Assembly: GCF_936981045.1 (NCBI RefSeq)
Contig: NZ_OW441264.1
Coordinates: forward strand, 1,080,001 to 1,112,000
DNA length: 32,000 bases
Direction: 5' to 3'
Source: Candidatus Saccharimonadota bacterium
GTDB taxonomy: Bacteria > Bacteroidota > Bacteroidia > Cytophagales > Amoebophilaceae
Position 1 is the first letter of the stretch. Every line of letters starts with the position of its first letter. Below are positions 1,145-32,000 of the stretch, piece by piece. Under the pieces are notes generated by a model. That model ran no database searches. It had not been told where the DNA came from and was given only the letters and a program-made list of their open reading frames with translations. The position numbers and the translations under genes are program-made.

Positions 1145-1221
1145 CTATTGAATTAATATTTACTGATTATCAGCATTTTGTTTAAAATTTACTATTTCTT
1201 TCTATTTTCTTTTTACTACTA

Positions 1222-2223
1222 ACCTCAGTTCGGGATTAGACGTATTGTGAACCAGTCATATATATATTAGTTATAGAAGGTTTTTTCTCTTTTAGTGCAT
1301 AAGCTGTAATTCCAGCTATCAAATTGACTGGAAAATTAGGTATGCTTCTATGCCTGGAATGTTCTATCTGGCTAATATTTTTGAGCTGATCTATAATAGT
1401 TTCAATTATAGATCGTTTTCTAAGCATCAGTTTATCCCAGAGTGGCATAAAAGCATTTTTCATATTTTTTCTGATCTGGGTAATGAGTTCCACGCCTTTC
1501 TCGATCAGTTTTTCAAATAAATCTTTGCTTATGTAACCTTTATCGGCAAACATTTTACCCATGAAGTGTTTACATAAATTTTCTACAGGAAGCCTATCAT
1601 TAGTTTTACCTGTGGTCAGTTGAAAATTCATAATTTCTCCTAAATCATTGACTATCAAGTGCAACTTTAATCCAAAAAACCAACCGGTGCTGGTTTTACC
1701 TTTAGTAGCAATCGATTTAAAAACCCTGTGCGTATAGGCTCTTTTGATATGGCAAACCTTGATGGCTGTTGCATCCATAAAATAACAACCTGTTTTTGTT
1801 TTAGCAAGACTTTGTGTAAAACAGTACAAGGGAGCTAACGTTCTTTGGATCAGTTCTATAAATCTATTCTAGCTTACTAACTTTCCAAATTTACTAGAAT
1901 GAAATTGCCGTAAATGAATATAATAAGACTTAAAATTTCTAAAACCAATCACATGAAAGGCAATAAGAATAGTCATTATTTCACTCAAAGTTAATGAACA
2001 AGTTCTAGTGGGTTTTCTTTTAGAGTTGGTTAACAGTTGTTTTTCCATATACGGCATAAACTTTATGAGAAATTCATCAACAGCATAATATATTTCAACT
2101 AACTTTTCTACATTCATAACTAGCTCCTTTGGGTAATCTGGTTAGTATTTTTTTATCTCCAAATTTAAAACACAAAGGAGCTTTTTAAAGCTATTTTTTA
2201 ACAAGCTAATCCCGAACTCACGT
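1222..2223 (-). mobile_element. IS982-family IS, copy 1 (1002 bp)
   Basis: Termini ACCTCAGTTCGGGATTAG (1222..) and CTAATCCCGAACTCACGT (..2223) form inverted repeats starting with AC. It is near-identical to 6063..7065. Confidence 0.85.
1236..2117 (-). pseudogene. IS982-family transposase with an in-frame TAG
   Basis: ORFs 1869..2117 and 1236..1829 are one frame split by a stop at 1869..1871. Copy 1 reads AGC TAG AAT where copy 2 reads AGC TAC AAT. The motifs YFMDATAIKVC, WFFGLKLHLIVN and ADKGYIS fit an IS982 DDE transposase. Confidence 0.85.
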
Positions 2224-2491
2224 TAGTAGCGTCTTTTCTTTTAAGTGAAGTTTTGGATATATATTGGGTATTATTCGGCCATTAGCATAACAAAATTCTC
2301 AAAAGCAGAAAGATGATTTTTAGCTCCGATTACTTGTCCTTTTTGAATCATACGAATGTTTTCTATCCCTGCAATGGTAATGGCTGCAGACTTAAAACAC
2401 TTAAAACTAAGCATAGGTTTTAGCCGTTTTTTGATAAACCTATGATCTTGTTCAACTCTATTATTCAAGTATTTGTTTTGAAATATTTGAA

Positions 2492-3772
2492 TAGTGAGGC
2501 CGTTGTGATAGATTTCTATTATAATATTTTTAGGGTTGTTTAGACTGATTTTTGGTATTAAAGTGGTATTAATTTTATTATTTATTGATTTTTATGTACT
2601 TTTATTGCATTTTAGACAGACCATTCCCCTAAAGACCTCTTAATATGATATTTGGCGACCTGTATAAGTTATAGGCTATTGCTTCGATAATGTGTTGCGT
2701 ATGAGTTTTAGCAAGTCCTATGTAGCGAGCTCCTGAGCTTCGGAACCAACTTTTAATACTTCCAAATACACGTTCTACTTTATACCTGGTTTTAGCTACC
2801 AATGTATTAAACCGTTTAGCAGTAGGTGATAAAGGATTATTTCTAGTAGCTTTCTTCTGAATAGCTGATTTTAAGGCTTTATTCTTTAATAAGGTTTCAT
2901 TAGGTGATCCGCTATAGCCCTTATCTGCATATAGCCTACTACCTACTTTTAGCTCTACTTTATCCAATAAGACTTGTAAATGAGCACTATCATGACTAGA
3001 TGCTTTTGTGGTACTGACTGCTAGGACTAAGCCTTCTTTACTTTCCACAAGGATGTGACGCTTATACCCATAGTAGAGATTATCTCCTTTTTTTGTCCAA
3101 CTCGCTTCTGGATCTACACCTTTTTGATAACTTTCGGCTACAGTTATAGTGCCATCTTCATGGAGATCATAGCTTTTTTTACCTTTAGGGCGCCTAGCGG
3201 TAGGCGTAATAGAGGCATCAACAACTGCACCATGTTGAACTAATACACCATGACTAGATAGTTGATCGTTAATTATTTTCAATAACCTTTCTAGGACCTG
3301 CTTCTCCGTAAGCGCAGTCCTAAACCTGCTTAATACGCTATGATCTGGAACAGAACTATCCATGGAAATACGACAAAATCTGCTGAAAGTGATACGATCA
3401 TTTACTTCTTCTTCTACTTGATAGTCACTCAGAGCATACCATGTTTGAAGCAACAGCATTTTAAATAAAAGAAGCGGGCTATAAGCTGCCTTTCCTGATA
3501 AACACAAACCTTTAGGATAATACAAGAAAAGTTCTTTTTCTATTACTTTCCAAGTAATCAGCTTATTAAGCTGATCGAAAAAAGTATGCTTACACTTACG
3601 TCGACTGGCTGAAATATCTGCAAAACTTAATTGATTATTTGTTTTGACGGCCATAACAATATTATTAAAAAGCTTAAGTTTAAACGATTAAAGAATCAAC
3701 CTAATTTAACCATTGTATAACACTAAAAGTCACTTTTTATAACAAAGCTTAAAACTCTATTGCAACAACCTC
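2492..3772 (-). mobile_element. IS5-family IS (about 1281 bp) inserted into the IS6 transposase gene
   Basis: The IS6 sequence ...ATATTTGAAT|GGTATGATC is split here. GAAT is present on both sides (2488..2491 and 3773..3776), a 4-bp target duplication. Imperfect terminal repeats are GAGGCCGTTGTGATAG and CTATTGCAACAACCTC. Confidence 0.75.
2629..3654 (-). CDS. IS5-family DDE transposase, 341 aa, apparently intact
   Basis: Uninterrupted ORF. LLLQTWYALSDYQVEEEVNDRITFSRF, YGYKRHILV, LYADKGYSG and YKVERVFGSIKSWF...RYIGLAKTHTQ follow the IS5-group pattern. Confidence 0.85.
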   Translation of the reverse strand: MAVKTNNQLSFADISASRRKCKHTFFDQLNKLITWKVIEKELFLYYPKGLCLSGKAAYSPLLLFKMLLLQTWYALSDYQVEEEVNDRITFSRFCRISMDSSVPDHSVLSRFRTALTEKQVLERLLKIINDQLSSHGVLVQHGAVVDASITPTARRPKGKKSYDLHEDGTITVAESYQKGVDPEASWTKKGDNLYYGYKRHILVESKEGLVLAVSTTKASSHDSAHLQVLLDKVELKVGSRLYADKGYSGSPNETLLKNKALKSAIQKKATRNNPLSPTAKRFNTLVAKTRYKVERVFGSIKSWFRSSGARYIGLAKTHTQHIIEAIAYNLYRSPNIILRGL

Positions 3773-4326: not shown

Positions 4327-4679
4327 TCTCTAAGCAAAAGAATTATCAACCAATCAAAAAAAGTAAAAATAAAGTTTATAGTATCCATGAGCCTGCTGTC
4401 TACTGTGTCAGTAAAGGTAAGGCTTCCCATCTCTATGAATATGGTTGCAAGGTACAATTTACACTAACCCATAAACAGGGATTAATTGTATCCACGGAAG
4501 CTTTACATCCTAATGTATATGATGGACATACCTTGCAGAGGAGTTTATTACAAGCAGAAAAACTATATGGTACTAAGGTGAAATGTGCCTTTGTAGATAA
4601 GGGCTATAAAGGACATAATATACCTAGTAATGCATGTACTATATTTATAAGCGGCTCTAAAAAAGGGATAACACCTGCT
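4327..4679 (+). pseudogene. Fragment of another IS5/IS4-like DDE transposase, cut on both sides by IS ends
   Basis: My translation reads ...KVYSIHEPAVYCVSKGKASHLYEYGCKVQFTLTHKQGLIVSTEALHPNVYDGHTLQRSLLQAEKLYGTKVKCAFVDKGYKGHNIPSNACTIFISGSKKGITPA. No start codon. It is bounded by the IS6 IR (4326) and the IS256-B IR (4680). Confidence 0.55.
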
Positions 4680-6025
4680 GGAAGTGTTCTATAAACTGTG
4701 TCACATCTCCTGTTCATCTCAACGTCTCTTTTAATCTACCGGAAAAAAAGATGTCTATCTGAGATATGGTCAACGCCCAGTTTCGCAGCGGCATAGTCCA
4801 TTTATCCTCGATCTTCTTTATGGCACAATATACTAATTTATACAAAGCATTTATACTGGTAAACGCTCCTTTTGTCTTAGTAAACTTCCTAATCTGCCTA
4901 TGCAAGCTTTCTATAGGATTGGTGGTATAAATTAGCCTTCTGACAGAATCTGAATACTTAAAATAACCAGACAAATGTTCCCAATTATTTTGCCGAGATT
5001 TGGTAACCATTGGATACTTCCCCTCCCATTTTTCTTCTAATTCCAATAGATAATGCTCAGCAACTTCCTTACTTGAAGCTTGATATATTTGCTTTAAATC
5101 AGTTAAAAAACGTTTTACGTCTTTGATAGCTACATACTTGAGTGAGTTTCGTATCTGATGTACTACACAGACCTGCACTTGTGCATTAGGGAAAACGCTA
5201 TTTATGGCTGAAGGAAAGCTTTTTAGGCCATCAACACAGGCAATAAGGATATCTTCTACACCTCTTTCCTTAAGCTCGTTAAGTACACCCAACCAGAAGT
5301 TAGCCCACTCACTTTCAGACAAATAAATCCCAATACTTCTTTTTTACCCTCTTGATCTATGCCTAATAAGGTATACATGCATTTGCTTACACATCTGCCA
5401 TCTTCTTTTACCTTAAAAAACATCCTATCCATGAAAACTATCGGATAAACTGATTGAAGAGGGCGGTTACGCCATTCATTTATTATCGGTAACAAGCTAT
5501 CTGTAATAGATGATATTTCAGCAGCTGATACTTTATGATCATAGATCTCTTCAACATGAACGGCTATAGATTTATAGCTCATACCACTAGAAAACATGCT
5601 TAAGATCTTGCTTTCCAGCTCAGGATGTAGGCTTGTTTGACGCTTTTTAACTATTTGTGGATCGAAACTACCTGTCCTATCCCTAGGAGTTAGCAGATCA
5701 AAGGAACCAGAACTTGTACGTAAAGTTTTAGAGCTTTTGCCATTTCTTCTATTATTTTCTGTTGAATCACTAGATAAATGGTGTGCCATTTCACCTTCTA
5801 GACTTGCCTCTAGAAGCTTTTTTATCAGAGGCGTTAAAGCACCACCTTTTCCTGTTAAAGGCTTACCTAAACGGATGGAGCACAAAATATTTTCCTCCAG
5901 AAATTTGTAATCTACTAAACCAACATAGGAATTGTTCTTATTTTCTTCCATGTCTAAAACCTTTAATGTTTATTTAATTAATTTATAACTTTTTATCGCC
6001 TTGACACAGTTTATAGAACACTTCC
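4680..6025 (-). mobile_element. IS256-family IS, type B (1346 bp)
   Basis: Perfect 24-bp inverted repeats GGAAGTGTTCTATAAACTGTGTCA at 4680..4703 and 6002..6025. No matching direct repeat in the flanks. Confidence 0.85.
4714..5951 (-). pseudogene. IS256/mutator-family transposase with a frameshift
   Basis: ORFs 5256..5951 and 4714..5322 overlap in different frames. The join ...GIDQEGKKEVLGF / YLSESEWANFWLGVLNELKERGVEDILIACVDGL needs one extra T in GGATTTATTTG near 5320..5330. PRDRTGSFDPQIVKK and NPIESLHRQIRK are family motifs. Confidence 0.8.
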
Positions 6026-6062
6026 ATCTTAATCTTTATATGCTAAAGGTATGAGTCTGTCA
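6026..6062 (+). mobile_element. 37-bp internal fragment of the type A IS256-like element, opposite orientation
   Basis: The reverse complement matches 411..447 (TGACAGACTCATACCTTTAGCATATAAAGAT...) except for one extra T. It is sandwiched between the IS256-B IR and the IS982 copy 2 terminus. Confidence 0.5.
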
Positions 6063-7065
6063 ACCTCAGTTCGGGATTAGACGTATTGTGAACCAGTCAT
6101 ATATATATTAGTTATAGAAGGTTTTTTCTCTTTTAGTGCATAAGCTGTAATTCCAGTTATCAAATTGACTAGAAAATTAGGTATGCTTCTATTCCTGGAA
6201 TGTTCTATCTGGCTAATATTTTTGAGATGATCTATAATAGTTTCAATTATAGATCGTTTTCTAAGCATCAGTTTATCCCAGAGTGGCATAAAAGCATTTT
6301 TCATATTTTTTCTAATCTGGGTAATGAGTTCCACGCCTTTCTCGATCAGTTTTTCAAATAAATCTTTGCTTATGTAACCTTTATCGGCAAACATTTTACC
6401 CATCAAGTGTTTACATAAATTTTCTACAGGAAGCCTATCATTAGTTTTACCTGTGGTCAGTTGAAAATTCATAATTTCTCCTAAATCATTGACTATCAAG
6501 TGCAACTTTAATCCAAAAAACCAACCGATGCTGGTTTTACCTTTAGTAGCAATCGATTTAAAAACCCTGTGCGTATAGGCTCTTTTGATATGGCAAACCT
6601 TGATGGCTGTTGCATCCATAAAATAACAACTTGTTTTTGTTTTAGAAAGACTTTGTGTAAAACAGTACAAGGGAACTAACGTTCTTTGGATCAGTTCTAT
6701 AAATCTATTGTAGCTTACTAACTTTCCAAATTCACTAGAATAAAATTGCTGTAAATGAATATAATAAGACTTAAAATTTCTAAAACCAATCACATGAAAG
6801 GTAATAAGAACAGTCATTATTTCACTCAAAGTTAATGAACAAGTTCTAGTGGGTTTTCTTTTAGAGTTGGTTAACAGTTGTTTTTCCATATACGGCATAA
6901 ACTTTATGAGAAATTCATCAACAACATAATATATTTCAACTAATTATTTCTACATTCATAACTGGCTCCTTTGGATAATCTGGTTAGTATTTTTTTATCT
7001 CCAAATTTAAAACACAAAGGAGCTTTTTAAAGCTATTTTTTAACAAGCTAATCCCGAACTCAGGT
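6063..7065 (-). mobile_element. IS982-family IS, copy 2 (1003 bp)
   Basis: Termini ACCTCAGTTCGGGATTAG and CTAATCCCGAACTCAGGT. It is collinear with copy 1 and one nucleotide longer. Confidence 0.85.
6077..6959 (-). pseudogene. IS982-family transposase with a +1 frameshift after codon 4; a 273-aa ORF from an internal Met (6077..6898) remains
   Basis: Copy 1 reads ATGAATGTAGAAAAGTTAGTTG and copy 2 reads ATGAATGTAGAAATAATTAGTTG (start at 6957..6959), giving MNVEIIS-stop. The rest is intact, so activity from Met21 cannot be excluded. Confidence 0.65.
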
Positions 7066-7466
7066 TATGAAAGAAACCTCCCCTATATCGAGCAGAAATA
7101 TGGTCGCACTTCAAAAGAAGTTCAGGAGTGTAGAGGCCGGGACAAACGCCTTGTCGCTGGTATCTAGGGCCAATATGGTGGAGGAAGTCGTGTTGGCGAA
7201 GTAGACGAAGGGTACGTATCAGGGTAATATACACCTTCCCAAAGGCCAGGTTGATTAGAACGTGGCCCACGAATAAAACCACCCCTTGTAAAAAGTTACG
7301 ATGAGAAATCACATCTTGCAGTTGATCAGAAAAACAGCATGTTTGAAGCCCGCGCAGAGGGCAAGTTCTGTTTTTCCAGCAGTAAGGTGTGGTTTCAGCA
7401 ACTTTTTGCCATAGGGCTTGATTTTTTGGCTAGTTTTTGATCCAGCAAAAAATAGCATACAAATCC
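7066..7466. repeat. Long structured intergenic repeat, copy R1
   Basis: Three parts: a GC-richer arm (7066..7281), a foldback (7282..7417) and a GATC hairpin with terminus (7429..7466). The arm is related to 21234..21548 (inverted). The foldback CCCCTTGTAAAAAGTT...AACTTTTTGCCATAGGG and the hairpin GCTAGTTTTTGATCCAGCAAAAAATAGC are related to 26251..26338, 28862..29046 and 14840..14911. Confidence 0.6.
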
Positions 7467-7467
7467 A

Positions 7468-8949
7468 TCAAGACAATTCAAATGAATCATTTAACGCATT
7501 GGCCTTGCTCGAATGAATGACAAACTGTTCCGGTTGAGCGGTAGAAGGGGACATATCCGCATCTATAAACTTCATATATCGGCCCATAAATTGCAGATGA
7601 ACCTGATCTAATGCACCATTCCGATGCTTGGCAACAATAACCTCTGCTAGCCCCTGTGTAGGATTACCCAACTCATCCTCTGTTAAGCCATAATATTCTG
7701 GTCTATATAAGAATAGGACTAGATCCGCATCTTGTTCAATAGAACCCGACTCACGTAAATCAGATAATTGAGGCCGTTTGCTCCCTCCACGTGTCTCTAC
7801 TGCCCTACTTAATTGAGAAAGTGCCACCACTGCAATGTCCAACTCTTTGGCAATGTTTTTAAGCGCACGTGAAATCGAAGCAATCTCTTGTTCACGGTTG
7901 CCCCCTCCTCTATTAGGATCGCCTGACATAAGCTGCAAATAGTCAATAACAACCAGTTGAATATCATGTTTGGCCTTAAGCCTTCTACATTTGGTGCGTA
8001 GTTCAAAAACAGAGAGGGCAGGTGTATCATCTACGTAGATCGGAGCATTGGAGAGTTCGGCCGTTTTATGAAGCAATTGTTCCCACTCATGGTCCATTAA
8101 TTTACCTTGCTTTATTTTTTCACCCGCTAACTCTGCTTCAGCTGATATCAATCGATTGACCAATTGTAATGCACCCATTTCTAAGGAAAAAATAGCTACG
8201 GGTAACTTATGGTCTATAGCTGCATTGCGTAAAGCAGAGAGTACAAAAGCGGTTTTACCCATACCAGGTCTAGCTGCAATAATAATCAAATCAAACTTTT
8301 GCCAACCAGAGGTAATACGGTCTAAAGCGGTAAACCCACTTGGAATACCAGTCAGCCCATTAGTGCGCATGCGACGGTTATGTAAACTATCAAAGGCTTC
8401 TACCAATAATGAACGTATCTCTAGATAACGCTTGCGCATATTGCCATCCGAAATCTCAAATAGTGCCTGTTCAGTACGATCTAAAGTATTGAAAACATCC
8501 ATAGTAGGATCATAGGCATACTTCTGAACCATAGTGGAAATCTCTATTAACTTTCTGCGCATGGCATATTCTAGAATAGCCCTAGCATGAAATTCAATAT
8601 TGGCTGAAGAGCTAATGCGCGTCGTTAGATAACTTACATAATAACTTCCGCCTACTGCATCCAATTTACCATCTTTGCGCAACTGATTGACTACCGTAAG
8701 CATATCTATGGGCTCTGAATCATTAAACAGTTGTACGATGGCTCGATAAATTTCTTGATGGGATTCTTTATAAAAACTCTCAGGCCGTAAAAGATCAATG
8801 ACGCTCACTAACGCCTCTTTCTCTAACATCAATGCACCCAATACGCCCTCTTCTAAATCTAAGGCATGTGGAGGATATTTTGCATTGATCGCAAACGTGT
8901 CAGACGGATTAGATGGTGCCGCTTCTAAGTCTTTAGTATATGTTTTCAT
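7468..8949 (-). CDS. dnaB: Replicative DNA helicase DnaB
   Basis: 493-aa ORF. N-terminal PPHALDLEEGVLGALML, Walker A AARPGMGKTAF, and LVVIDYLQLM and SQLSRAVE motifs. Confidence 0.95.
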   Translation of the reverse strand: MKTYTKDLEAAPSNPSDTFAINAKYPPHALDLEEGVLGALMLEKEALVSVIDLLRPESFYKESHQEIYRAIVQLFNDSEPIDMLTVVNQLRKDGKLDAVGGSYYVSYLTTRISSSANIEFHARAILEYAMRRKLIEISTMVQKYAYDPTMDVFNTLDRTEQALFEISDGNMRKRYLEIRSLLVEAFDSLHNRRMRTNGLTGIPSGFTALDRITSGWQKFDLIIIAARPGMGKTAFVLSALRNAAIDHKLPVAIFSLEMGALQLVNRLISAEAELAGEKIKQGKLMDHEWEQLLHKTAELSNAPIYVDDTPALSVFELRTKCRRLKAKHDIQLVVIDYLQLMSGDPNRGGGNREQEIASISRALKNIAKELDIAVVALSQLSRAVETRGGSKRPQLSDLRESGSIEQDADLVLFLYRPEYYGLTEDELGNPTQGLAEVIVAKHRNGALDQVHLQFMGRYMKFIDADMSPSTAQPEQFVIHSSKANALNDSFELS

Positions 8950-14342: not shown

Positions 14343-14839
14343 TCATACAACATAATTTATTACCAGGTATAAGGAAAAAAGCTGCATCTAAACAATGCAA
14401 AACTCCATTATACTATTTTCTAGACTCCTGCACTCTAAAATTATAATAGGCGGGACCCATTATTGGTCTTGGCATGAGGCTTTATGCTAAGTACTACACA
14501 CGCTATACCTATTAAAATATCTTGACGCATAAAATGTGCCAATCGCATGGTATAGGTAGCTGTTTTTTAAAATTATACCTAAACCGTACACACCATTAAT
14601 GGTACTTGCGCACCCCAACCAGATCCCAATGGTCAGCCCCTCTTTCTATCAAATAATTGCAACTTTATAAGTTTATTTTCTGAAGTTTCAACCCCTCCAT
14701 ACTTATACATATTTCATAAAAGAAGAGGTGCCATCAAACAATGCGCTAAGTATAGATGTAAAGTAGCTTACAAACCAAAGCCATTCATATAAAGTTAATT
14801 GTAAACCTTAAGTTATAGAAATTTTTTGAGGGATTTAAA

Positions 14840-14911
14840 GGAACGTTTTTGCTTACTTTTTGATTGATCAACAAGTAAGCAAAAAATCAAGTCCTAGTGC
14901 AAAAAGTTTCC
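14840..14911. repeat. Nested-palindrome intergenic repeat, copy R4 (inverted relative to R1-R3)
   Basis: GGAACGTTTTTGC...GCAAAAAGTTTCC outer arms. Inner hairpin GCTTACTTTTTGATTGATCAACAAGTAAGC (14851..14880). Motif GCAAAAAATCAAGTCCT (14879..14895). Confidence 0.6.
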
Positions 14912-15067
14912 AAAATTGTGCCCTTAAAGGGCGAGCCAGATATAATAAATTAAGACTTAGACTTAATAACTTGCTTTTCAAAACAAAATAAAAAACACCC
15001 CTTCAGCCTTCTGGCAACACGAAACAAGAGAAAACACTTCTAATGCAAAAGGAGCATATAGGCTTCG

Positions 15068-15721: not shown

Positions 15722-16039
15722 AATATGTTCAATAGTTTACACTGCATTAAATTATTAATGGGTACATTCCCTAAGTATAACAACCTAAGCTAGCAACTTG
15801 AAAAATGTCAAAGGCAACTAACCTATCCCTATGCCTATTTTGTGCACTAGTAAACATTAGCAAAATAACTTACGCATTTGGTTAGTGCTTTTAATTTAGT
15901 AAATCTTTATAAAAAATCCTTTTATGGCATTAAAATACAATCAGATTAAATTGGATCAAGCCTATAGAGGCCACCCATCTAGTATCTGTTCAGGCCAGTA
16001 GTCCTACAGCTTCCACTTCAACTGTTTTTCTGTTCAGCT

Positions 16040-16209
16040 ATAAGCTGCACTTTCTAGTCCTAATTTTTTGCAAGGGACGATTTTTCTTGTTTTTAGGCAG
16101 TATGGCCAAAAGGCTGAATGGGTACCGAAACATTGGTAATATAATGATCCGTATATATTTTTTTGTTTAATATCCATAGGGCCATTGTTGTCTTTATATG
16201 AAACCTATC
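16040..16209. repeat. Degenerate partial copy of the long intergenic repeat (R6), ending at the MITE A boundary
   Basis: TTTTTTGCAAGGGACGATTTTTCTTGTTTTTAGGCAGTATGGCC parallels CTTTTTACAAGCAGCGGTTTTCTTGTTTTGGGGTAGTCTTGCC at 21263... GCACTTTCTAGTCCTAATTTTTTGC resembles the CTTGATTTTTTGC motif. Confidence 0.4.
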
Positions 16210-16451
16210 AACGTGAGTTCGGGATTAGATTATTTTTTCATTTGATAATCAATATTAATAAAAATTTATAAAATTTGTTTTATTAGACAGTTAAATAGGT
16301 AGTTGAATAATAAATAATTGTGGTAATCAGTTTATTATATATATTATATTTATAAAATTAGATATAAAAACTTGTTAAATAGGTGCAAATATTAACTAAA
16401 TAATTGATATTAAATTGTTGTAAATCAGTCAAATAAATCCCGAACTCACGT
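16210..16451 (+). mobile_element. MITE A: ~240-bp non-autonomous element with IS982-like termini
   Basis: ACGTGAGTTCGGGATTAG...AATCCCGAACTCACGT termini match the IS982-like IR. The interior is very AT-rich with no ORF. It is the reverse complement of 16807..17046. Confidence 0.8.
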
Positions 16452-16806
16452 TAAAAGGATAGCAAATGGCAGTATGTTGAAGCTAATTAAACAAACCCTA
16501 ACAACGTCAATAGCAAAACAAGGTAAAATTACATGCAAGAAAGTTGGAGTACCGCAAGGATCACCAATATCACCGTTGTATAGTGATATCTACCTAAATG
16601 TTATAGACCAAGTGTGGCACTCAAGGGGGTATCCAGAAAAGCTAAGCGCAACCTTGCATAGGTATTGTGATGATGCAATTTTGGTATGTCGTAAGAGTGC
16701 TAGCTTAGCGCTGGAGAAATTCACAGAATTAGCAAAGAGGTTATCGCTCATTATTAACCACCGAAAGACACGAATAACGAAACTGAAAGAAGGTTTTAAC
16801 TTCATA
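16452..16806 (+). pseudogene. Reverse transcriptase fragment (group II intron / retron-type RT, palm motifs only)
   Basis: The frame is open across the whole insert. GVPQGSPISPLYSDIYLN (RT motif 4), RYCDDAILVC (YxDD, motif 5) and LIINHRKTRITKLKEGFNFI (motifs 6-7). The N-terminal RT motifs and the thumb/X domain are absent. MITE ends cut both sides. Confidence 0.75.
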
Positions 16807-17046
16807 ACGTGAGTTCGGGATTTATTTTACTGATTTACAACAATTTAATATCAATTATTTAGTTAATATTTGCACCTATTTAACAAGTTTTTATATCTAA
16901 TTTTATAAATATAATATATATAATAAACTGATTATCAGAATTATTTTTTATTCAACTACCTATTTAACTGTCTATAAAACAAATTTTATAAATTTTTATT
17001 AATATTGATTATCAAATGAAAAAATAATCTAATCCCGAACTCACGT
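16807..17046 (-). mobile_element. MITE B (inverted relative to MITE A)
   Basis: 240 bp. I count 4 substitutions versus 18991..19230, and about 5 substitutions plus 1-2 single-nt indels versus the reverse complement of 16210..16451. Confidence 0.8.
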
Positions 17047-17577
17047 TATTATATAGTTCCAAATTTCTGCTACTGGTAACATTGCATCGCCTACAAAAAC
17101 AAATAGGCCCATTATGCATATAAAAGATACTATAATGAGATGACAAAAACTGCTATACAAGAAAACTTTTTTGGTTTCAATGGGACCAGAACACATGTAG
17201 ACCCTATGTATAGTTCGGCAATCAGAAACTTCAGAAAAAGGAAATGGGATGAATAAAAGCAAATGCAATAGTTGCCCATTAGAATGGCACAGGCTACTAA
17301 GTTGAAATTTTGCTTGCTTTTGCAGCAAGGATACAATTTCTAAAACAGATTTACCTGTTTTTATAAACATAAGCTTAGCAATAAGGAAAATAATAGCAAT
17401 AAAGGTTATAAATTGCCATACATCGGTATTGGTAACAGAACGAATGCCCCCCAAAGTCGCATAAACAATAAGCACTAAAGTGGACAATATAGTAACGGTT
17501 TTACGATCCATTAAATCCATATACGTAGTGGTAATCAAGTACTTTTCATTTAGAAAAGGTGTATTGAGTAGCATCAT
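17047..17577 (-). pseudogene. Fragment of a sodium:solute symporter-family membrane protein, C-terminus removed by MITE B
   Basis: ATLGGIRSVTNTDVWQFITFIAIIFL resembles the SSS-family GG..AV..TD..Q segment. Only ~177 codons remain. The frame runs straight into the MITE terminus, whose ACG TGA supplies the stop. Confidence 0.45.
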
Positions 17578-18905: not shown

Positions 18906-18990
18906 ATGTTACCAAAGCATAAAGTATGATTTATGGCAAGAATTTAGCTAAATTTGAAGCATCTAAAATAGAATCAACACCATCCATATA

Positions 18991-19230
18991 ACGTGAGTTC
19001 GGGATTTATTTGACTGATTTACAACAATTTAATATCAATTATTTAGTTAATATTTACACCTATTTAATAAGTTTTTATATCTAATTTTATAAATATAATA
19101 TATATAATAAACTGATTATCAGAATTATTTTTTATTCAACTACCTATTTAACTGTCTATAAAACAAATTTTATAAATTTTTGTTAATATTGATTATCAAA
19201 TGAAAAAATAATCTAATCCCGAACTCACGT
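18991..19230 (-). mobile_element. MITE C
   Basis: 240 bp, same orientation as MITE B. Flanked by ATATA on both sides (a possible 5-bp target duplication, weak in AT-rich DNA). It ends 4 nt before the ATG at 19235. Confidence 0.8.
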
Positions 19231-19234
19231 ATAT

Positions 19235-20041
19235 ATGTTTAAAGTAGCTACCTTATACAAATTTGTGCCCCTAGATGACCTAGTAGCGCTACAGAAGAAA
19301 CTTCAATCTATATGCAAAGCACTAACCGGCACACTGCTGATTGCTTCAGAAGGGATTAATGGTACCATTGCTGGCCTGCCTGATCTACTAGACGATGCCA
19401 TCGCCCAGATAGAAGCCATTCCATCATTTGGTGACTTGTGGTATCAATATTCCAAAGCTAACCATAAGCCATTTCGTCTCTTAAAGGTTAGGATTAAAAA
19501 GGAAATTATAGCCATGCACCAACCGGAGGTCCCATCCATGCTACGACGTGGCCACTGCGTCTTAGCTTCAGACTGGAACAATAGGATGGATCAGTCAGCT
19601 GTTGTAATTGACGTTCGCAACGATTACGAACATCGATTGGGAAGTTTTGAAGGGGCATTAAATCCTAAAACAACCTACTTTAGCCAATTCCCTGCCTTTG
19701 TTGAACAAAATTTAACCCCCTATAAAGATCAGCCTATTGCTATGTTTTGTACGGGAGGGATCAGATGTGAAAAGGCCTCTGCTTATATGCTTTCTAGTGG
19801 CTTCAAAGAGGTGTATCAACTAAGTGGTGGCATTCTACAATATTTAGCCCATACGCAAGAAGCGCTATCCAGATGGAAAGGGGAATGTTTTGTTTTTGAC
19901 GAACGCATATCCCTAGGTCATGGATTAAAAAAAGGCAGTAGCCTGCTTTGCTATGGCTGCCGTATGCCTTTAACTACAGAAGATCTAGATGAAAATTACC
20001 AATCTGGTATTCGATGCAAATTTTGTCTAAAAGACAAATAG
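19235..20041 (+). CDS. trhO: Rhodanese-domain protein of the UPF0176/YceA (TrhO, tRNA U34 hydroxylase) family
   Basis: 268 aa. N-terminal ATLYKFVPL...LLIASEGINGTIAG, rhodanese active-site loop FCTGGIRCEKA, and a C-terminal Cys cluster CYGC...CKFC. Confidence 0.8.
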   Translation: MFKVATLYKFVPLDDLVALQKKLQSICKALTGTLLIASEGINGTIAGLPDLLDDAIAQIEAIPSFGDLWYQYSKANHKPFRLLKVRIKKEIIAMHQPEVPSMLRRGHCVLASDWNNRMDQSAVVIDVRNDYEHRLGSFEGALNPKTTYFSQFPAFVEQNLTPYKDQPIAMFCTGGIRCEKASAYMLSSGFKEVYQLSGGILQYLAHTQEALSRWKGECFVFDERISLGHGLKKGSSLLCYGCRMPLTTEDLDENYQSGIRCKFCLKDK

Positions 20042-20068: not shown

Positions 20069-20901
20069 GGTTCTGTCGCGTCTATAGTTTTCTTAGTATA
20101 GGTTTTTCGTTTAAGTCAAATTTTGGATATTATGCGGCCATTAAGATAGCAAAGTTCTCAAAAGTAGAAAGATGATTTTTAGCTCCTCTTACTTGTCCTT
20201 TTTGAATCATACGAATGTTTTCTATCCCTGAAATAGTAATGGAAGCAGAATAAAAATTCTTAAAACCCAGCATAGGTTTTATCCGTTTTTTGATAAACCT
20301 ATGATCTTGTTCAACTCTATTATTCAAATATTTGTTTTGAAATATTTGAATGGTATGATCTTGATCAAGATCTGTATTGATCGCATCAAGGGCAGCTTTA
20401 TTACTACCGCTTTTGTCAATTACTACTTTCTTAGGAATATTATTTTCTGTGATCGCCTTGCGAAAAAAAGAAAGCGTTGAAGACTTGTCTCTATGATCAG
20501 ATAGAAAAAAGTCAACTGTATCACCATAACGATCTACTGCTCTATATAAATAGATCCACTTCCCGTTTAGTTTAACATAGGTTTCATCCATTTTCCAACT
20601 ACTACCAATTGGTCGTTTTCTTTTTCTTACTGCTTTATCTATCAGAGGAACAAACTTAATAACCCATCTCTGTAGCGTAGAATGATCAACTCTTGCGCCT
20701 CTCATACGCATCATCTCTTCCAAATCTCTATAGCTCAAGGAAAAACGACACTTCATGTATACAAATAACAGGATGACTTCTGATGAAGAACAATAACCTT
20801 TAAAATATGGTAATAACTCGGGAGAAATATTAAACATAATAACTACTTTTTTAAATACCGATACTAAAATAATCATTTTTTAGAATAAACGCGACAGAAC
20901 C
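20069..20901 (-). mobile_element. IS6-family IS, complete (833 bp)
   Basis: Inverted repeats GGTTCTGTCGCGTCTATAG (20069..) and AATAAACGCGACAGAACC (..20901). No matching 8-bp direct repeat in the flanks. Confidence 0.85.
20130..20837 (-). CDS. IS6-family transposase, intact (235 aa from MFNISP)
   Basis: HTH region LSYRDLEEMMRMRGARVDHSTLQRWV, DDE core WKMDETYVKLNGKWIYLYRAVD, VIDKSGSNKAA and NNRVEQDHRFIKKR. The track ORF starts 13 codons further upstream. Confidence 0.85.
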   Translation of the reverse strand: MFNISPELLPYFKGYCSSSEVILLFVYMKCRFSLSYRDLEEMMRMRGARVDHSTLQRWVIKFVPLIDKAVRKRKRPIGSSWKMDETYVKLNGKWIYLYRAVDRYGDTVDFFLSDHRDKSSTLSFFRKAITENNIPKKVVIDKSGSNKAALDAINTDLDQDHTIQIFQNKYLNNRVEQDHRFIKKRIKPMLGFKNFYSASITISGIENIRMIQKGQVRGAKNHLSTFENFAILMAA

Positions 20902-21233: not shown

Positions 21234-21548
21234 TTGGCTGCAAGGTGTGCGTTCTGATCGCACCTTTTTACAAGCAGCGGTTTTCTTGTTTTGGGGTAGT
21301 CTTGCCATACTGCTGCATAGATACCATTGCCACAAGGTTGGACGGGTACACCTTTTCTTTATATTGCATTTTATTAAAGCAAGAACGGTAACCTCCCAGA
21401 GGCTTAAAATAAGGAAGGAAAGGCTGGAAGAACAGCAGCAGGGTTATAGGCATAAACCTGCTGTCTGTCCTTTCAGTTCAAATAACGCGCTTTTTCCATT
21501 ACGTAGCAACGTGGGTGTTTGTTTTTATCTATTGAAATTGTGTTAGAT
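21234..21548. repeat. Partial copy (R5) of the long intergenic repeat, left end cut by the IS256-A terminus
   Basis: GCAAGGTGTGCGTTCTGATCGCACCTTTTTACAAGCAGCGGTTTTCTTG parallels the reverse complement of 7271..7320. TAGATACCATTGCCACAAGG parallels the reverse complement of 7149..7168. It is GC-richer than the surrounding spacers. Confidence 0.5.
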
Positions 21549-25606: not shown

Positions 25607-25679
<73 letters not shown>

Positions 25680-25786
25680 CGTCTGATCTATTTGGGTAAA
25701 CCATCAACTATTTCTTGCTATTACTAGTAGTTGAGCGGATGGTGCACTTATTTTTGTGTGTGCTGTCTTCACAGCCATGCAGCTTT

Positions 25787-25869
25787 GCCAGGATGGTGGA
25801 ACTGGTATACACGCAAGACTTAAAATCTTGTGGCTTTTGGCCATGCGGGTTCGATTCCCGCTCCTGGTA
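25787..25869 (+). tRNA. tRNA-Leu (anticodon TAA), class II with a long variable arm
   Basis: Acceptor GCCAGGA/TCCTGGT (G1-T72 wobble), anticodon arm CAAGA-CTTAAAA-TCTTG, variable arm TGGCTTTTGGCCAT, T arm GCGGG-TTCGATT-CCCGC. Confidence 0.8.
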
Positions 25870-25899
25870 CACATTCTACTCTTTTTGCTTGTTGTATTG

Positions 25900-26184
25900 A
25901 TGGACTTTTGCGCTATTTCCTTTTTAGATGTTGTGTCATGCATCGCTTCATCTACAGCAGTACTTTCTCTTCTTCCGCAGATTATACAGTCATATAGAAC
26001 CAAATCTGTTCATGATGTTTCCATGTTGATGCTCTTAAACCTAACCGTTTCTTCGGTCAGCTGGACCCTTTATGGAGCAATGACCGCTGATAAACCATTG
26101 TTGCTAACCAATTTGTTGCTCACAATTGGTTCTTTGATTATGGTGTGGCTCAAACGAAAATACTGTTCAGCTGAACGTCCATAA
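25900..26184 (+). CDS. SemiSWEET / PQ-loop small membrane transporter (94 aa)
   Basis: Three predicted TM segments and the PQ motif LLPQIIQSYRTKS. The first 48 codons of track ORF 25756..26184 overlap tRNA-Leu, so I start at MDFCAISF. Confidence 0.7.
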   Translation: MDFCAISFLDVVSCIASSTAVLSLLPQIIQSYRTKSVHDVSMLMLLNLTVSSVSWTLYGAMTADKPLLLTNLLLTIGSLIMVWLKRKYCSAERP

Positions 26185-26400
26185 GGACTTTGTATGCTAC
26201 TTTTTACCTATCTATTGAGCGGTACGGCCATGCAAAAAAATAAAAAAGCGCCCCTTGTAAAAAGTTGCTCAACTTCTTGTACAGGGCTTGACTTTTTGCA
26301 CACTTTTTGATCAAGAAAAAAGTGTGCTATAAATGCCTTTTTTACCACTGACTTGAATGGATACACTTTTTGTTTGATCAAAAAGTAACATACACAACCC
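26185..26400. repeat. Nested-palindrome intergenic repeat cluster R2
   Basis: The left terminus GGACTTTGTATGCTACTTTTT is inverted relative to the right terminus AAAAAGTAACATACACAACCC. Internal CCCCTTGTAAAAAGTTGC. Hairpins GCACACTTTTTGATCAAGAAAAAAGTGTGC (26298..26327) and ACTTTTTGTTTGATCAAAAAGT (26365..26386). Confidence 0.6.
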
Positions 26401-28655: not shown

Positions 28656-28861
28656 GGTATATACGAATAATTAAAAAATAAAATGCGCCGTCTATGCTTC
28701 TAACCTTATCATTTTTAGAAGCTTAGATGAGGCTAAGCCTTACACTGCAAATTTATACTTTTTTTAATAAATCCTAATAGTACCATACCTTTAAATTAAG
28801 AAATAAAGATTGGTTTACCATATCCTACTCTAGGCATCTAATAGCCATTCCTATCAAAAAG

Positions 28862-29046
28862 ACCCTGCATTGTAGAAAATTGCAACTGGCAGGTCTACGC
28901 TGAAAGCTGAGCAGAAAATCAGTTTAATGGGGCCGCGAGGCGGCTGCTGATTTCCCAGCTTTCAGCGTAAACTTACAACAGCTTTTTGCACAGCGCTTGA
29001 TTTTTTGCTTGTTTTTTGATCCAGCAAAAAGTAGCATAGCACTTCC
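28862..29046. repeat. Nested-palindrome intergenic repeat, copy R3
   Basis: 74-nt hairpin at 28896..28969: a 14-bp perfect base TACGCTGAAAGCTG/CAGCTTTCAGCGTA and an apical GCCGC-GAG-GCGGC. Then the motif AGCGCTTGATTTTTTGC and the hairpin GCTTGTTTTTTGATCCAGCAAAAAGTAGC (29007..29035). Confidence 0.6.
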
Positions 29047-29085
29047 TTTTAATCCGTCAAAAAGTAAGATCAAAACGTCTTATGT

Positions 29086-31906: not shown

Positions 31907-31952
31907 GGTTCTGTCGCGTCTATATTTTCGTTAGTAACGTCTTTTCTTTTAA
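31907..31952 (-). mobile_element. First 46 nt of an IS6-type left end, cut by MITE D
   Basis: GGTTCTGTCGCGTCTATATTTTCGTTAGTAACGTCTTTTCTTTTAA. Its 3' part overlaps the sequence that starts the truncated copy at 2224. Confidence 0.7.
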
Positions 31953-32000
31953 ACGTGAGTTCGGGATTATATTATTTTTTCATTTGATAATCAATATTAA
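31953..32000 (+). mobile_element. MITE D, first 48 nt (continues beyond the window)
   Basis: ACGTGAGTTCGGGATTATATTATTTTTTCATTTGATAATCAATATTAA differs at one position from 16210..16257. Confidence 0.75.

Follow-up and report, generated by a model that had tools for sequence, protein, structure and literature searches.

Short structured repeats of bacterial genomes have been described under several names. Bacterial MITEs with a structured interior, such as Correia/NEMIS of Neisseria, RUP of pneumococcus and ERIC/IRU of enterobacteria, are short, non-coding, intergenic imperfect palindromes, and published surveys find MITEs to be mostly genus-specific (PMC11602168). REP/BIME elements are hairpins of about 35-40 nt associated with RAYT transposases, for which a Bacteroidetes-specific TnpA(REP) subclass 2.6 has been described (Quentin et al., 2018, PMC6006769), and they are targeted by IS110 elements in Pseudomonas and E. 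coli (PMC1525189, PMC11208160). TRIT is a sequence-conserved, terminator-like palindrome of Mycobacterium (Gardner et al., 2011, PMC3152330). In Cardinium cOegib, MITECca01/02 have been reported (Halter et al., 2022, PMC9769881), of which MITECca01 derives from the IS982-family ISCca4 and shares its inverted repeats.

Here, we analysed a repeat family first noticed in a stretch of 32,000 nucleotides (the window; contig NZ_OW441264.1, positions 1,080,001 to 1,112,000, assembly GCF_936981045.1) from a Cardinium-like genome of the Amoebophilaceae. A preliminary description, made from the sequence alone, had pointed to four intergenic nested-palindrome repeats with compensatory stem changes and a conserved GATC loop, and had likened them to REP/BIME elements. 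The observation itself is confirmed, whereas the reading given to it is only partly supported: the repeats are interspersed, mosaic and structured, but the copies in this lineage are MITEs, and a 40-nt core within them recurs in intergenic repeats across the phylum Bacteroidota.

The repeat copies in the window

All four copies (R1 to R4) lie where they had been placed, but they are longer than previously given (Table 1). The motif CTTGAYTTTTTG occurs exactly four times in the window, at 7417, 26287 and 28996 on the plus strand and at 14891 on the minus strand, and TTTTTGATCNNNNAAAA gives seven matches against 0.34 expected by chance. The four copies align over about 60 nt, and a covariance model built from 87 distinct sequences, 83 of them from other genomes, recovers them with E-values of 3e-12 to 1e-9, together with a fifth, hairpin-only copy. 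A chance resemblance among AT-rich, low-complexity spacers was considered because the window is AT-rich and the 12-mer alone reaches four matches in 2 of 100 shuffles, but it is refuted by these E-values and by homologous copies in other genomes whose 3' half, unconstrained by the search, is conserved and paired.

Table 1. Coordinates of the repeat copies, their parts and related features in the window (limits of R1 to R4 are approximate).
Coordinates	Strand	Feature	Support
7259..7487	+	R1, long-form copy; right end overlaps the last codons and the stop of dnaB (7468-8949, minus strand)	Aligns to positions 11-243 of a 249-bp TIR/TSD-bounded element of Cardinium (Philonthus); blastn 78% over 189 nt, E 2e-35
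7283..7416	+	R1 nested long foldback, CCCCTTGTAAAAAGTT ... AACTTTTTGCCATAGGG, inner arms CAGAAAAACAG / CTGTTTTTCCAG	MFE structure of 7280-7466, -61 kcal/mol, z = -4.77; 0 of 200 shuffles fold as well
7417..7456	+	R1 core module, CTTGAT TTTTTG GCTAG TTTTTG ATCCAG CAAAAA ATAGC	Covariance model 63.9 bits, E 2.7e-12
14835..14940	-	R4, short-form copy, inverted orientation; core 14852-14891	Covariance model 58.9 bits; aligns to reference positions 124-229
26208..26364	+	R2, short-form copy, intact right end (...GAATGGATAC); core 26287-26326; flanks ACTTTTTA / ACTTTTTG, a 7 of 8 target duplication	Covariance model 60.2 bits; TIR matches; aligns to reference positions 150-249; flanks read from the sequence
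26364..26387	-	Hairpin-only relic (GTTAC TTTTTG ATCAAA CAAAAA GT..), opposite orientation; R2 is inserted into its 3' arm	Covariance model 26.5 bits, E 3e-4; empty site rebuilt from the flanks of R2
28841..29059	+	R3, long-form copy; foldback about 28894-28969; core 28996-29035	Covariance model 52.0 bits; fold -60 kcal/mol, z = -2.89; aligns to reference positions 17-236; extra sequence relative to the syntenic Cardinium spacers
16019..16085	-	Probable fragment of the left half of a long-form copy	blastn to the long form from cBcalN2, positions 33-100, 76% identity, E 2e-8
21238..21272	-	Possible degenerate fragment of the left half	Weak blastn and pattern matches
16210-16460, 16804-17047, 18988-19240		IS982-type MITEs	

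The compensatory stem changes reported in the preliminary description are genuine. The stems GCACAC/GTGTGC (R2) and GCTTAC/GTAAGC (R4) are fully complementary, GCTAG/ATAGC (R1) has one mismatch, and the R3 stem is partly degenerate, with wobble pairs. The long foldback of R1 and R3 is also real, and the A/T to T/A swap noted in it is present. GATC is found in all four loops, but it is a by-product of the closing G and the loop consensus ATCAAG and is lost in related variants with TATCAAG, CATCAAG or GTCAAG, which leaves no significance for Dam/GATC.

In contrast to a REP-type reading, the copies of this lineage are bounded by imperfect terminal inverted repeats (GTATCTGTTC... / ...GAATAGATAC) and 8-bp target duplications. 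The elements span 135-253 bp and have no ORF, and they come in a short form of about 135-160 bp and a long form of about 240-250 bp, the latter being the short form with a 110-nt imperfect palindrome nested in its first hairpin. At locus L133 (L numbers designate loci sampled from other genomes), GTATCTGTTCAACACTATGG matches the reverse complement GTATCTATTCACGTCACTGG at 14 of 20 positions, and the same ends occur in Cardinium cBcalN2 and at the right end of R2, whereas the ends of R1, R3 and R4 are eroded. Perfect 8-bp duplications were found at L039 (GATGCTTT) and in copy B of L133 (AAAAAATG); apart from the 7 of 8 match at R2, other copies have no clear duplication, and both TIRs and TSDs were shown only for Amoebophilaceae. 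More than 15 near-identical copies with sharp shared boundaries lie in cBcalN2, many at contig ends.

The first set of loci shared no orthologous neighbours with the window, and exact-protein look-ups for the window's dnaB and TLC gave no record, but syntenic Cardinium loci revealed differences in the presence, number and orientation of copies. In the DUF3127-Prx spacer the window has R3, while the Philonthus strain has a shorter copy in the opposite orientation; in the TLC-PQ spacer the Philonthus strain has two tandem full copies; and C. hertigii has a copy between ABC-3 and DUF3127 where the window has none. That the copies be the ends of a known IS or MITE with a coding master copy had been named beforehand as a refuting outcome; they are MITEs, but no coding master copy or known parental IS was found, and no IS with these ends was detected in the window or the loci. 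The 8-bp TSD and a CTGTT motif fit the IS6 family, whose copies are present, but the similarity is weak, that of the TIR to the window's IS6-type ends (GGTTCTGTCGCGTC) being limited to TCTGT.

The conserved 40-nt core across Bacteroidota

The family is phylum-wide rather than genome-specific. A scan with an exact 21-base pattern returned more than 115 loci in Sphingobacteriales, Flavobacteriales, Bacteroidales, Cytophagales and Chitinophagales, a lower bound that quantifies neither copy number nor taxonomic breadth. Across lineages, sequence information is confined to about 40 nt, the flanks being unrelated: a 5' hexamer (CTTGAT), a T-rich linker (TTTTTG), and an 11-bp stem (NNTAC-TTTTTG / CAAAAA-GTANN) closed by a 6-nt loop (ATCAAG) complementary to the hexamer. 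The 3' half was not part of the search pattern, yet it is conserved and complementary. A phage origin was considered, but two exact-pattern scans of 2.9 million viral contigs found nothing. Searches of Rfam 15 at the gathering score and at E <= 10 returned only tRNAs (window) and a fluoride riboswitch (locus L005) above threshold, sub-threshold hits being noise with E > 0.1. Among the papers that could be searched, sequence strings gave only chance hits and topic searches found no description of the family.

The stem covaries strongly, with 94.5% of cells paired against 83.5% in shuffles and 91 double-change cells against 23, while slid controls give 49-62%, although related copies inflate the covariation counts, here and for the hexamer and loop. 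Variants such as TTTCTTC/GAAGAAA keep the stem paired. G·T outnumbers A·C 38 to 5, so one strand folds. The hexamer also covaries with the loop: base 6 of the hexamer against base 1 of the loop gives T-A 67, C-G 5, A-T 2 and 4 not compensated, with further cases in CTTGAC/GTCAAG (L139) and a complete swap to CTCCTT/GAGGAG (L141).

These data bear on the possibility that the core is a double-stranded DNA site for a protein, either a tyrosine-recombinase or Xer-like core site or a nucleoid or transposition host-factor site kept inside mobile elements. The 11-6-11 architecture is that of Xer and other tyrosine-recombinase core sites, each arm reads TACTTTTTG, apparently close to the GTANNTTTGC target of CTnDOT-type integrases, and small and large insertions occur precisely inside the core. 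However, the outer stem positions covary among four Watson-Crick pairs, which a protein reading duplex DNA does not require, the G·T over A·C asymmetry has no meaning in duplex DNA, and the hexamer-loop covariation includes a complete sequence swap. We consider this reading very unlikely. The IHF consensus WATCAANNNNTTR showed no fit by inspection.

About 115 of 121 copies are intergenic. The upstream neighbour is co-directional in 49 cases against 19, and between tandem genes the element is co-oriented 23 times against 6. Clustering of all ORFs within 3 kb of 121 copies gave no recurrent protein family. IS110 copies from 6 of 7 sampled subfamilies sit exactly after the loop hexamer, and the L034, P0088, P0014, P0021, P0086 and P0010 copies all lie directly 3' of it, the core being the fixed target of a clade of these DEDD-transposase elements.

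A REP/RAYT-type system, in which a single-stranded DNA hairpin would be recognised and spread by a domesticated Y1 (HUH) transposase encoded once per genome, with the hexamer acting as a guide that pairs with the loop as in IS200/IS605 and REP systems, finds some support in the invariant flanking and loop bases, the covarying stem, the folding of only one strand, the hexamer-loop pairing, the IS110 targeting, the clusters of mixed orientation (five copies in 1.6 kb at L030) and the description of the Bacteroidetes-specific TnpA(REP) subclass 2.6 (PMC6006769). However, a motif search found no HUH/Y-motif ORF in the window or in 115 loci, a result that does not extend to whole genomes, and no RAYT/Y1 gene lies within 3 kb of 121 copies. 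No GTAG or CGTC tag is present, the foot of the consensus hairpin being variable (NN) and its 5' flank CTTGAT-TTTTTG. The core is nearly invariant across orders, whereas REPs normally co-diverge with their RAYT, and the Cardinium carriers have TIRs and 8-bp TSDs, which a single-strand HUH mechanism does not produce. We regard this reading as unlikely. An IS200/IS605-derived PATE, with subterminal hairpins at both ends and neither TIRs nor target duplication, does not fit either, since there is one core per element and TIRs and TSDs are present in Cardinium.

Promoter and terminator readings were rejected. A sigma-70 scan shows nothing at the copies, and the Bacteroidota -33 TTG / -7 TAnnTTTG promoter, checked by eye on both strands, has the wrong spacing (10-13 nt where 17-23 nt are needed), TACTTTTTG having one T too many. 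The core stem is A/U-rich and followed by unrelated sequence without a U-tract, and a simple terminator scan flags none of the four window copies. We also considered an upstream hairpin with CUUGAUUUUUUG as the U-tract, but a hairpin abutting the core on its 5' side is not more frequent than in controls (36% against 26-32%), even if the 100 nt 5' of the core are more structured than the 3' flank (33% against 11% with z < -2).

Possible roles of the core module

Taken together, we favour the view, with a probability of roughly 0.6, that the four copies belong to a family of non-autonomous transposable elements of Cardinium/Amoebophilaceae carrying a core module that is much older and wider than the MITE. 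The repeat family, its TIRs and TSDs, the polymorphism between genomes, the phylum-wide spread, both covariations, the strand asymmetry and the IS110 targeting are established by the analysis, whereas action at the RNA level, the insulator role and the identity of the transposase are inferred from sequence alone. In this view, a DDE transposase supplied in trans would move the elements, the IS6 family being our guess. As a TIR/TSD element moves as double-stranded DNA, and the folding strand is usually the sense strand of the upstream gene, the module most likely acts in RNA. We propose a compact pseudoknot or two-state hairpin in read-through or 3'-UTR transcripts that would insulate neighbouring genes, by blocking either read-through or 3'-to-5' decay, although in the window R1 and R3 are antisense to both neighbouring genes, and any insulator role is not orientation-strict here. 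Such a role would make the carriers tolerated and would be why the module persists, and its ubiquity would have made it the landing site of the IS110 clade.

Alternatively, the core may be the active part of a free-standing functional RNA, a small RNA gene or a catalytic or ligand-binding pseudoknot, for which MITEs and other repeats are only vehicles. Two helices supported by covariation with invariant unpaired bases, the tendency of the 5' flank to be structured and the absence of an Rfam match are in its favour. The linker gains a C in three variants whose A-tract gains a G (L030:3212, L006, L141), which fits a U·A-U / C·G-C triplex or an alternative pairing, but only these three support the triplex idea, and two of them fit alternative Watson-Crick pairing equally well. 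In addition, no promoter or terminator is conserved around the core, no gene association exists, orientation is mixed within the window, and, with no unpaired loop bases, the hexamer-loop helix and the full stem may not coexist. We regard this alternative as unlikely. A bolder possibility, tentative but not excluded, is that the module is a previously unrecognised, phylum-wide class of structured RNA, a compact pseudoknot in which the 5' hexamer pairs with the hairpin loop and the U-rich linker lies along the U:A stem, possibly as a triple helix, acting as a self-contained transcript-end, stability or insulator element (or some other RNA device), repeatedly picked up by Bacteroidota mobile elements and homed into by an IS110 clade.

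Bacteroidota differ from model bacteria in their promoters, translation initiation and RNA-binding proteins, and their interspersed repeats and transcript-end signals are poorly charted. A 40-nt module kept by two independent sets of compensatory changes from Bacteroidales to Cytophagales would be a handy landmark for annotation, and it explains contig breaks and odd gene ends such as the dnaB terminus here. It is a candidate new structured RNA or recognition site, and a natural, conserved target for a large clade of IS110 elements, which is relevant to how these bridge-RNA recombinases choose safe harbours and to their use as tools in gut Bacteroidota. It also adds a second, widespread MITE family to Cardinium genomes, where the one paper that we found describing a Cardinium MITE reports it from a single strain.

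Comparison with described repeat and RNA systems

H-type pseudoknots with a U-rich loop over a U:A stem (telomerase RNA, ENE-type triple helices) have a comparable order of 5' strand, U-rich linker, U-rich stem strand, partner of the 5' strand and A-rich stem strand, and linker composition tracks the stem in the three variants above. This is a resemblance only, without experimental or statistical proof of a triplex: there are no spacer bases around the loop helix, and the linker is short for an 11-bp stem. TRIT is likewise a multi-copy gene-end hairpin with strong conservation of both sequence and structure that lacks a classical U-tail, which suggests a protein partner, but it is genus-restricted and sits at a fixed distance from stop codons, whereas the present core lies 100-1000 nt from the upstream gene and is phylum-wide.

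REP/BIME elements are similar in hairpin size and covarying stem, in being extragenic, multi-copy, sometimes clustered and embedded in mosaic units, and in being favoured targets of IS110-family elements, so that the comparison holds as a description of behaviour. Besides the missing foot and RAYT gene, the near-invariance across orders and the TIR/TSD carriers in Cardinium, the present core differs in that its loop-proximal bases are conserved and its stem-distal bases variable, and in the extra pairing between the 5' hexamer and the loop.

MITECca01/02 are also non-coding, about 240 bp long and multiplied in a Cardinium genome, and the window does contain such IS982-type MITEs (Table 1), but the present family has different ends and a different interior. 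With Correia/NEMIS, RUP and ERIC/IRU it shares the short intergenic imperfect palindromes, TIRs and target duplications (shown here for Cardinium), size variants made by internal insertions, as in ERIC, copy-number bursts in some strains, and the ability to overlap the ends of genes. It differs from them in that no parental IS was identified, and in that the conserved part is not the ends but a 40-nt internal module shared by otherwise unrelated repeats across a whole phylum.

The repeat family and its genomic setting

The repeat family reported in the preliminary description was recovered as described. The motif CTTGAYTTTTTG occurs four times in the window, and TTTTTGATCNNNNAAAA gave 7 matches against 0.34 expected by chance. 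The four copies, R1 to R4, align over about 60 nt and were picked up as a repeat family by an independent repeat finder. A covariance model built from 87 distinct sequences, 83 of them from other genomes, scored the four copies at 63.9, 60.2, 58.9 and 52.0 bits (E 3e-12 to 1e-9), and also identified a fifth, hairpin-only copy. The stems given in the preliminary description are correct for R2 and R4, while that of R1 has one mismatch and that of R3 is partly degenerate. The long foldbacks that had been proposed for R1 and R3 are real (z = -4.8 and -2.9, respectively), including the A/T to T/A swap noted between them.

The window is a piece of a Cardinium-like (Amoebophilaceae, Bacteroidota) chromosome. 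Its DUF3127 protein is 90% identical to that of the Cardinium endosymbiont of Philonthus spinipes, and the gene order hisS, ABC-3, DUF3127, peroxiredoxin, TLC ATP/ADP translocase, PQ-loop, mutS is the same in both. The window is crowded with IS982-, IS256-, IS5- and IS6-type transposase genes. All copies of the repeat are intergenic, except that the right end of R1 supplies the end of dnaB, so that the insertion appears to have replaced the original terminus of the gene.

Positions of the repeat copies and of neighbouring or related features (R1 to R4, copies in the window; L numbers, stretches retrieved from other genomes)
Feature	Position	Strand	Remarks
R1	window 7417 (start of CTTGAYTTTTTG)	+	aligns to reference positions 11-243
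R2	window 26287 (start of CTTGAYTTTTTG)	+	aligns to reference positions 150-249
R3	window 28996 (start of CTTGAYTTTTTG)	+	aligns to reference positions 17-236
R4	window 14891 (start of CTTGAYTTTTTG)	-	aligns to reference positions 124-229
Fifth copy	window 26364-26387	-	hairpin only
End of dnaB	window 7468-7490		last ~7 codons and stop codon, inside the right end of R1
IS982-family IS	window 6062-7066		transposase at 6077-6898, minus strand; IR AACCTCAGTTCGGGATTAG
Truncated twin of this IS	window 1221-2225		98% identical
IS982-type non-coding elements	window 16210-16460, 16804-17047, 18988-19240, 31952-32000		about 243 bp; same inverted repeats as the IS982-family IS (AACGTGAGTTCGGGATT); two of them bracket orf178 and dprA
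Reverse-transcriptase fragment (RVT_1)	window 16474-16812		112 aa; probably a group II intron remnant, between two IS982-type MITEs
IS256-like element	window 4679-6026		split Mutator-type transposase at 4714-5951; IR TGACACAGTTTATAGAACACTTCCA
IS6-like element	window 20069-20901		transposase at 20130-20876; IR GGTTCTGTCGCGTC
Extra orphan ends	window 31907; 4313; 21113
tRNA-Gly(GCC)	window 25607-25680
tRNA-Leu(TAA)	window 25787-25870
Mechanical 142-aa ORF	window 25756-26184		overlaps tRNA-Leu; the real PQ-loop gene is about 111 aa, as in the syntenic genome
DUF3127-Prx spacer	window 28656-29085, against L133 (Philonthus strain) 6334-6573		shorter family member in the opposite orientation in L133
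IS110-family element	L034 197-1806		splits the core
Clustered cores	L030 (Cyclobacteriaceae MAG) 1700-3270		five copies in both orientations, interleaved with other repeated modules
Split cores	L031 2600-2830; L071 356-445		structured insert of about 45 nt

The copies as MITEs in Cardinium

In this lineage the copies are MITEs. In the draft genome of Cardinium cBcalN2, more than 15 near-identical copies were hit, many at contig ends, which share sharp boundaries and occur in two sizes (135 and about 250 bp), the long one being the short one plus a 110-nt imperfect palindrome inserted into its first hairpin. The complete genome of the Philonthus strain has two tandem 249-bp copies, whose ends are GTATCTGTTCAACACTATGG... 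and ...CCAGTGACGTGAATAGATAC. Perfect 8-bp target duplications flank the element of L039 (GATGCTTT) and copy B of L133 (AAAAAATG), and R2 has ACTTTTTA / ACTTTTTG. R1 is 78% identical over 189 nt to the Philonthus element (E 2e-35).

Syntenic sites are polymorphic. In the DUF3127-Prx spacer, the window has about 200 nt (R3) that the others lack, while the Philonthus strain carries there a shorter copy in the opposite orientation, reflecting either inversion between the TIRs or independent insertion at a hot spot just after GCCGTTTTA. The TLC-PQ spacer has one copy in the window and two in the Philonthus strain, and C. hertigii has a copy between ABC-3 and DUF3127 where the window has none. R2 is itself inserted into the arm of the older hairpin-only copy. 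TIRs together with an 8-bp duplication point to a DDE transposase acting in trans. The IS6 family, which is present and also makes 8-bp duplications, is our guess for its identity, but the similarity of the ends is weak.

A core module across Bacteroidota and its structure

The centre of the element is not specific to this genome. An exact-pattern scan with CTTGAYTTTTTG-N5-TTKTTGATC against one genome per species returned more than 115 stretches, a lower bound, and was biased to an exact pattern. Nearly all are from Bacteroidota: Mucilaginibacter, Pedobacter, Sphingobacterium, Flavobacteriaceae, Polaribacter, Tenacibaculum, Bacteroidales, Bacteroidaceae, Cyclobacteriaceae, Chitinophagaceae, Saprospiraceae and Cardinium. 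Although the 3' half was not in the pattern, about 110 of 121 hits continue with AAGCAAAAAG plus the complement of the five variable bases. Across lineages, sequence information is confined to about 40 nt and the flanks carry none, whereas within a genome copies share 100-400 nt of lineage-specific flank. The core is therefore a module embedded in many different composite repeats. The covariance model found about 40 further diverged copies in the same loci, for example 5 in 1.6 to 1.7 kb of non-coding DNA in the Cyclobacteriaceae MAG, a BIME-like clustering. In Sphingobacteriales and Cyclobacteriaceae copies (L008, L015, L019, L044, L046, L065, L077 and L030), a second conserved motif, CCGCGGC-N3-5-GAGCGG, follows the core within a few bases. 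Two exact-pattern scans of viral contigs returned no hit, and nothing similar was found in Rfam.

The core reads CTTGAT, TTTTTG, [NNTAC TTTTTG], ATCAAG, [CAAAAA GTANN]. Its 11-bp stem is strongly supported: 94.5% of cells are paired, against 83.5% in shuffles and 49-62% when the partner is slid, and there are 91 double-change cells against 23, although these covariation counts are inflated by the relatedness of the copies. The outer pair shows GC 34, CG 22, AU 11 and UA 9. Variants change the T/A tract with compensation (TTTCTTC/GAAGAAA, TTTTGT/ACAAAA) and change the closing pair among G-C, T-A and C-G. G·T pairs outnumber A·C 38 to 5, so the structure forms on the strand written here. A site read by a protein in duplex DNA is unlikely, given the outer-stem covariation and this strand asymmetry.

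A second pairing links the 5' hexamer to the loop. Among distinct sequences, base 6 of the hexamer and base 1 of the loop are T-A in 67, C-G in 5, A-T in 2 and not compensated in 4. Other cases are CTGAT/ATCAG, CTTGAC/GTCAAG in further lineages, and a complete swap to CTCCTT/GAGGAG. As the loop has no spare bases, the two helices either alternate or form a tight loop-strand pseudoknot, which would be sterically possible by analogy with fully paired 6-nt kissing loops. In addition, the linker may track the stem: in three variants whose A-tract contains a G, the T-rich linker contains a C. This would fit either a triplex or an alternative pairing, and we regard it as a lead rather than a result.

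Genomic behaviour, inferred role and comparison with known repeats

About 115 of 121 copies are intergenic. Based on crude ORF calls, the gene on the 5' side is co-directional in 49 cases against 19, the element is co-oriented between tandem genes 23 times against 6, and convergent spacers are favoured over divergent ones, 26 to 13. The 100 nt on the 5' side are more structured than the 3' side, but a hairpin directly abutting the core is not a general feature. No protein family recurs within 3 kb of the copies, and a motif search of the window and these loci found no Y1 transposase. The main rival to the reading proposed below is a REP/RAYT-like single-stranded-DNA system, and Bacteroidetes do have their own RAYT subclass flanked by atypical hairpins (PMC6006769).

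The core is also a target of IS110-family elements. An IS110-family element (DEDD_Tnp_IS110 plus Transposase_20) splits the core of L034 exactly between GATCAAG and CAAAAAG. Its relatives number 5,931 at E <= 1e-20, and six of the seven subfamilies examined (L034, L124-L132 and L137-L141) sit at the same place, directly 3' of the loop hexamer, whatever its sequence: ATCAAG|, GTCAAG|, TTCAAG| or GAGGAG|. A sister IS110 subfamily (P0059, Chitinophagaceae; L116-L123) is flanked by a different repetitive target, the tandem heptamer repeats (GTGAAAA)n / GTGAATA. Small inserts of about 45 nt also occur inside the core: in L031 and L071, TTGATTTTTTG... and ...ATCAAGCAAAAAG are separated by such an insert, and the units are repeated in tandem with a conserved spacer (AAATAAAGTTCAGAAATTTC).

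The analysis establishes that the window copies are MITEs and that their core is an ancient module folding on a single strand, whereas what the core does is inferred from sequence alone. A TIR/TSD element moves as duplex DNA, so selection for pairing and for G·U over A·C must act elsewhere, most simply on RNA. The bias towards the sense strand of the upstream gene would fit a role in read-through or 3'-UTR RNA. However, there is no U-tail, no terminator was called at the window copies, and orientation is mixed in the window. As a hypothesis only, we propose a structure that stops read-through or exonucleolytic decay, which would make insertions harmless or useful.

In its behaviour the repeat resembles REP/BIME and ERIC elements, with a structured core, mosaic carriers, internal insertions and IS110 targeting. 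In Cardinium it qualifies as a MITE, but it lacks both the GTAG foot and the nearby RAYT gene expected of a REP, and it does not qualify as a terminator. The REP/BIME-type architecture suggested in the preliminary description was borne out only in part. We found no description of the module, within an incomplete coverage of the literature. The nearest named Cardinium element, MITECca01, which Halter et al. (2022) reported as unique to Cardinium strain cOegib, is IS982-derived and different, and the IS982-type non-coding elements of the window look like it. What seems new is a phylum-wide, nearly invariant 40-nt module with two covarying pairings, which is not what published MITE surveys describe, since they find MITEs to be mostly genus-specific.
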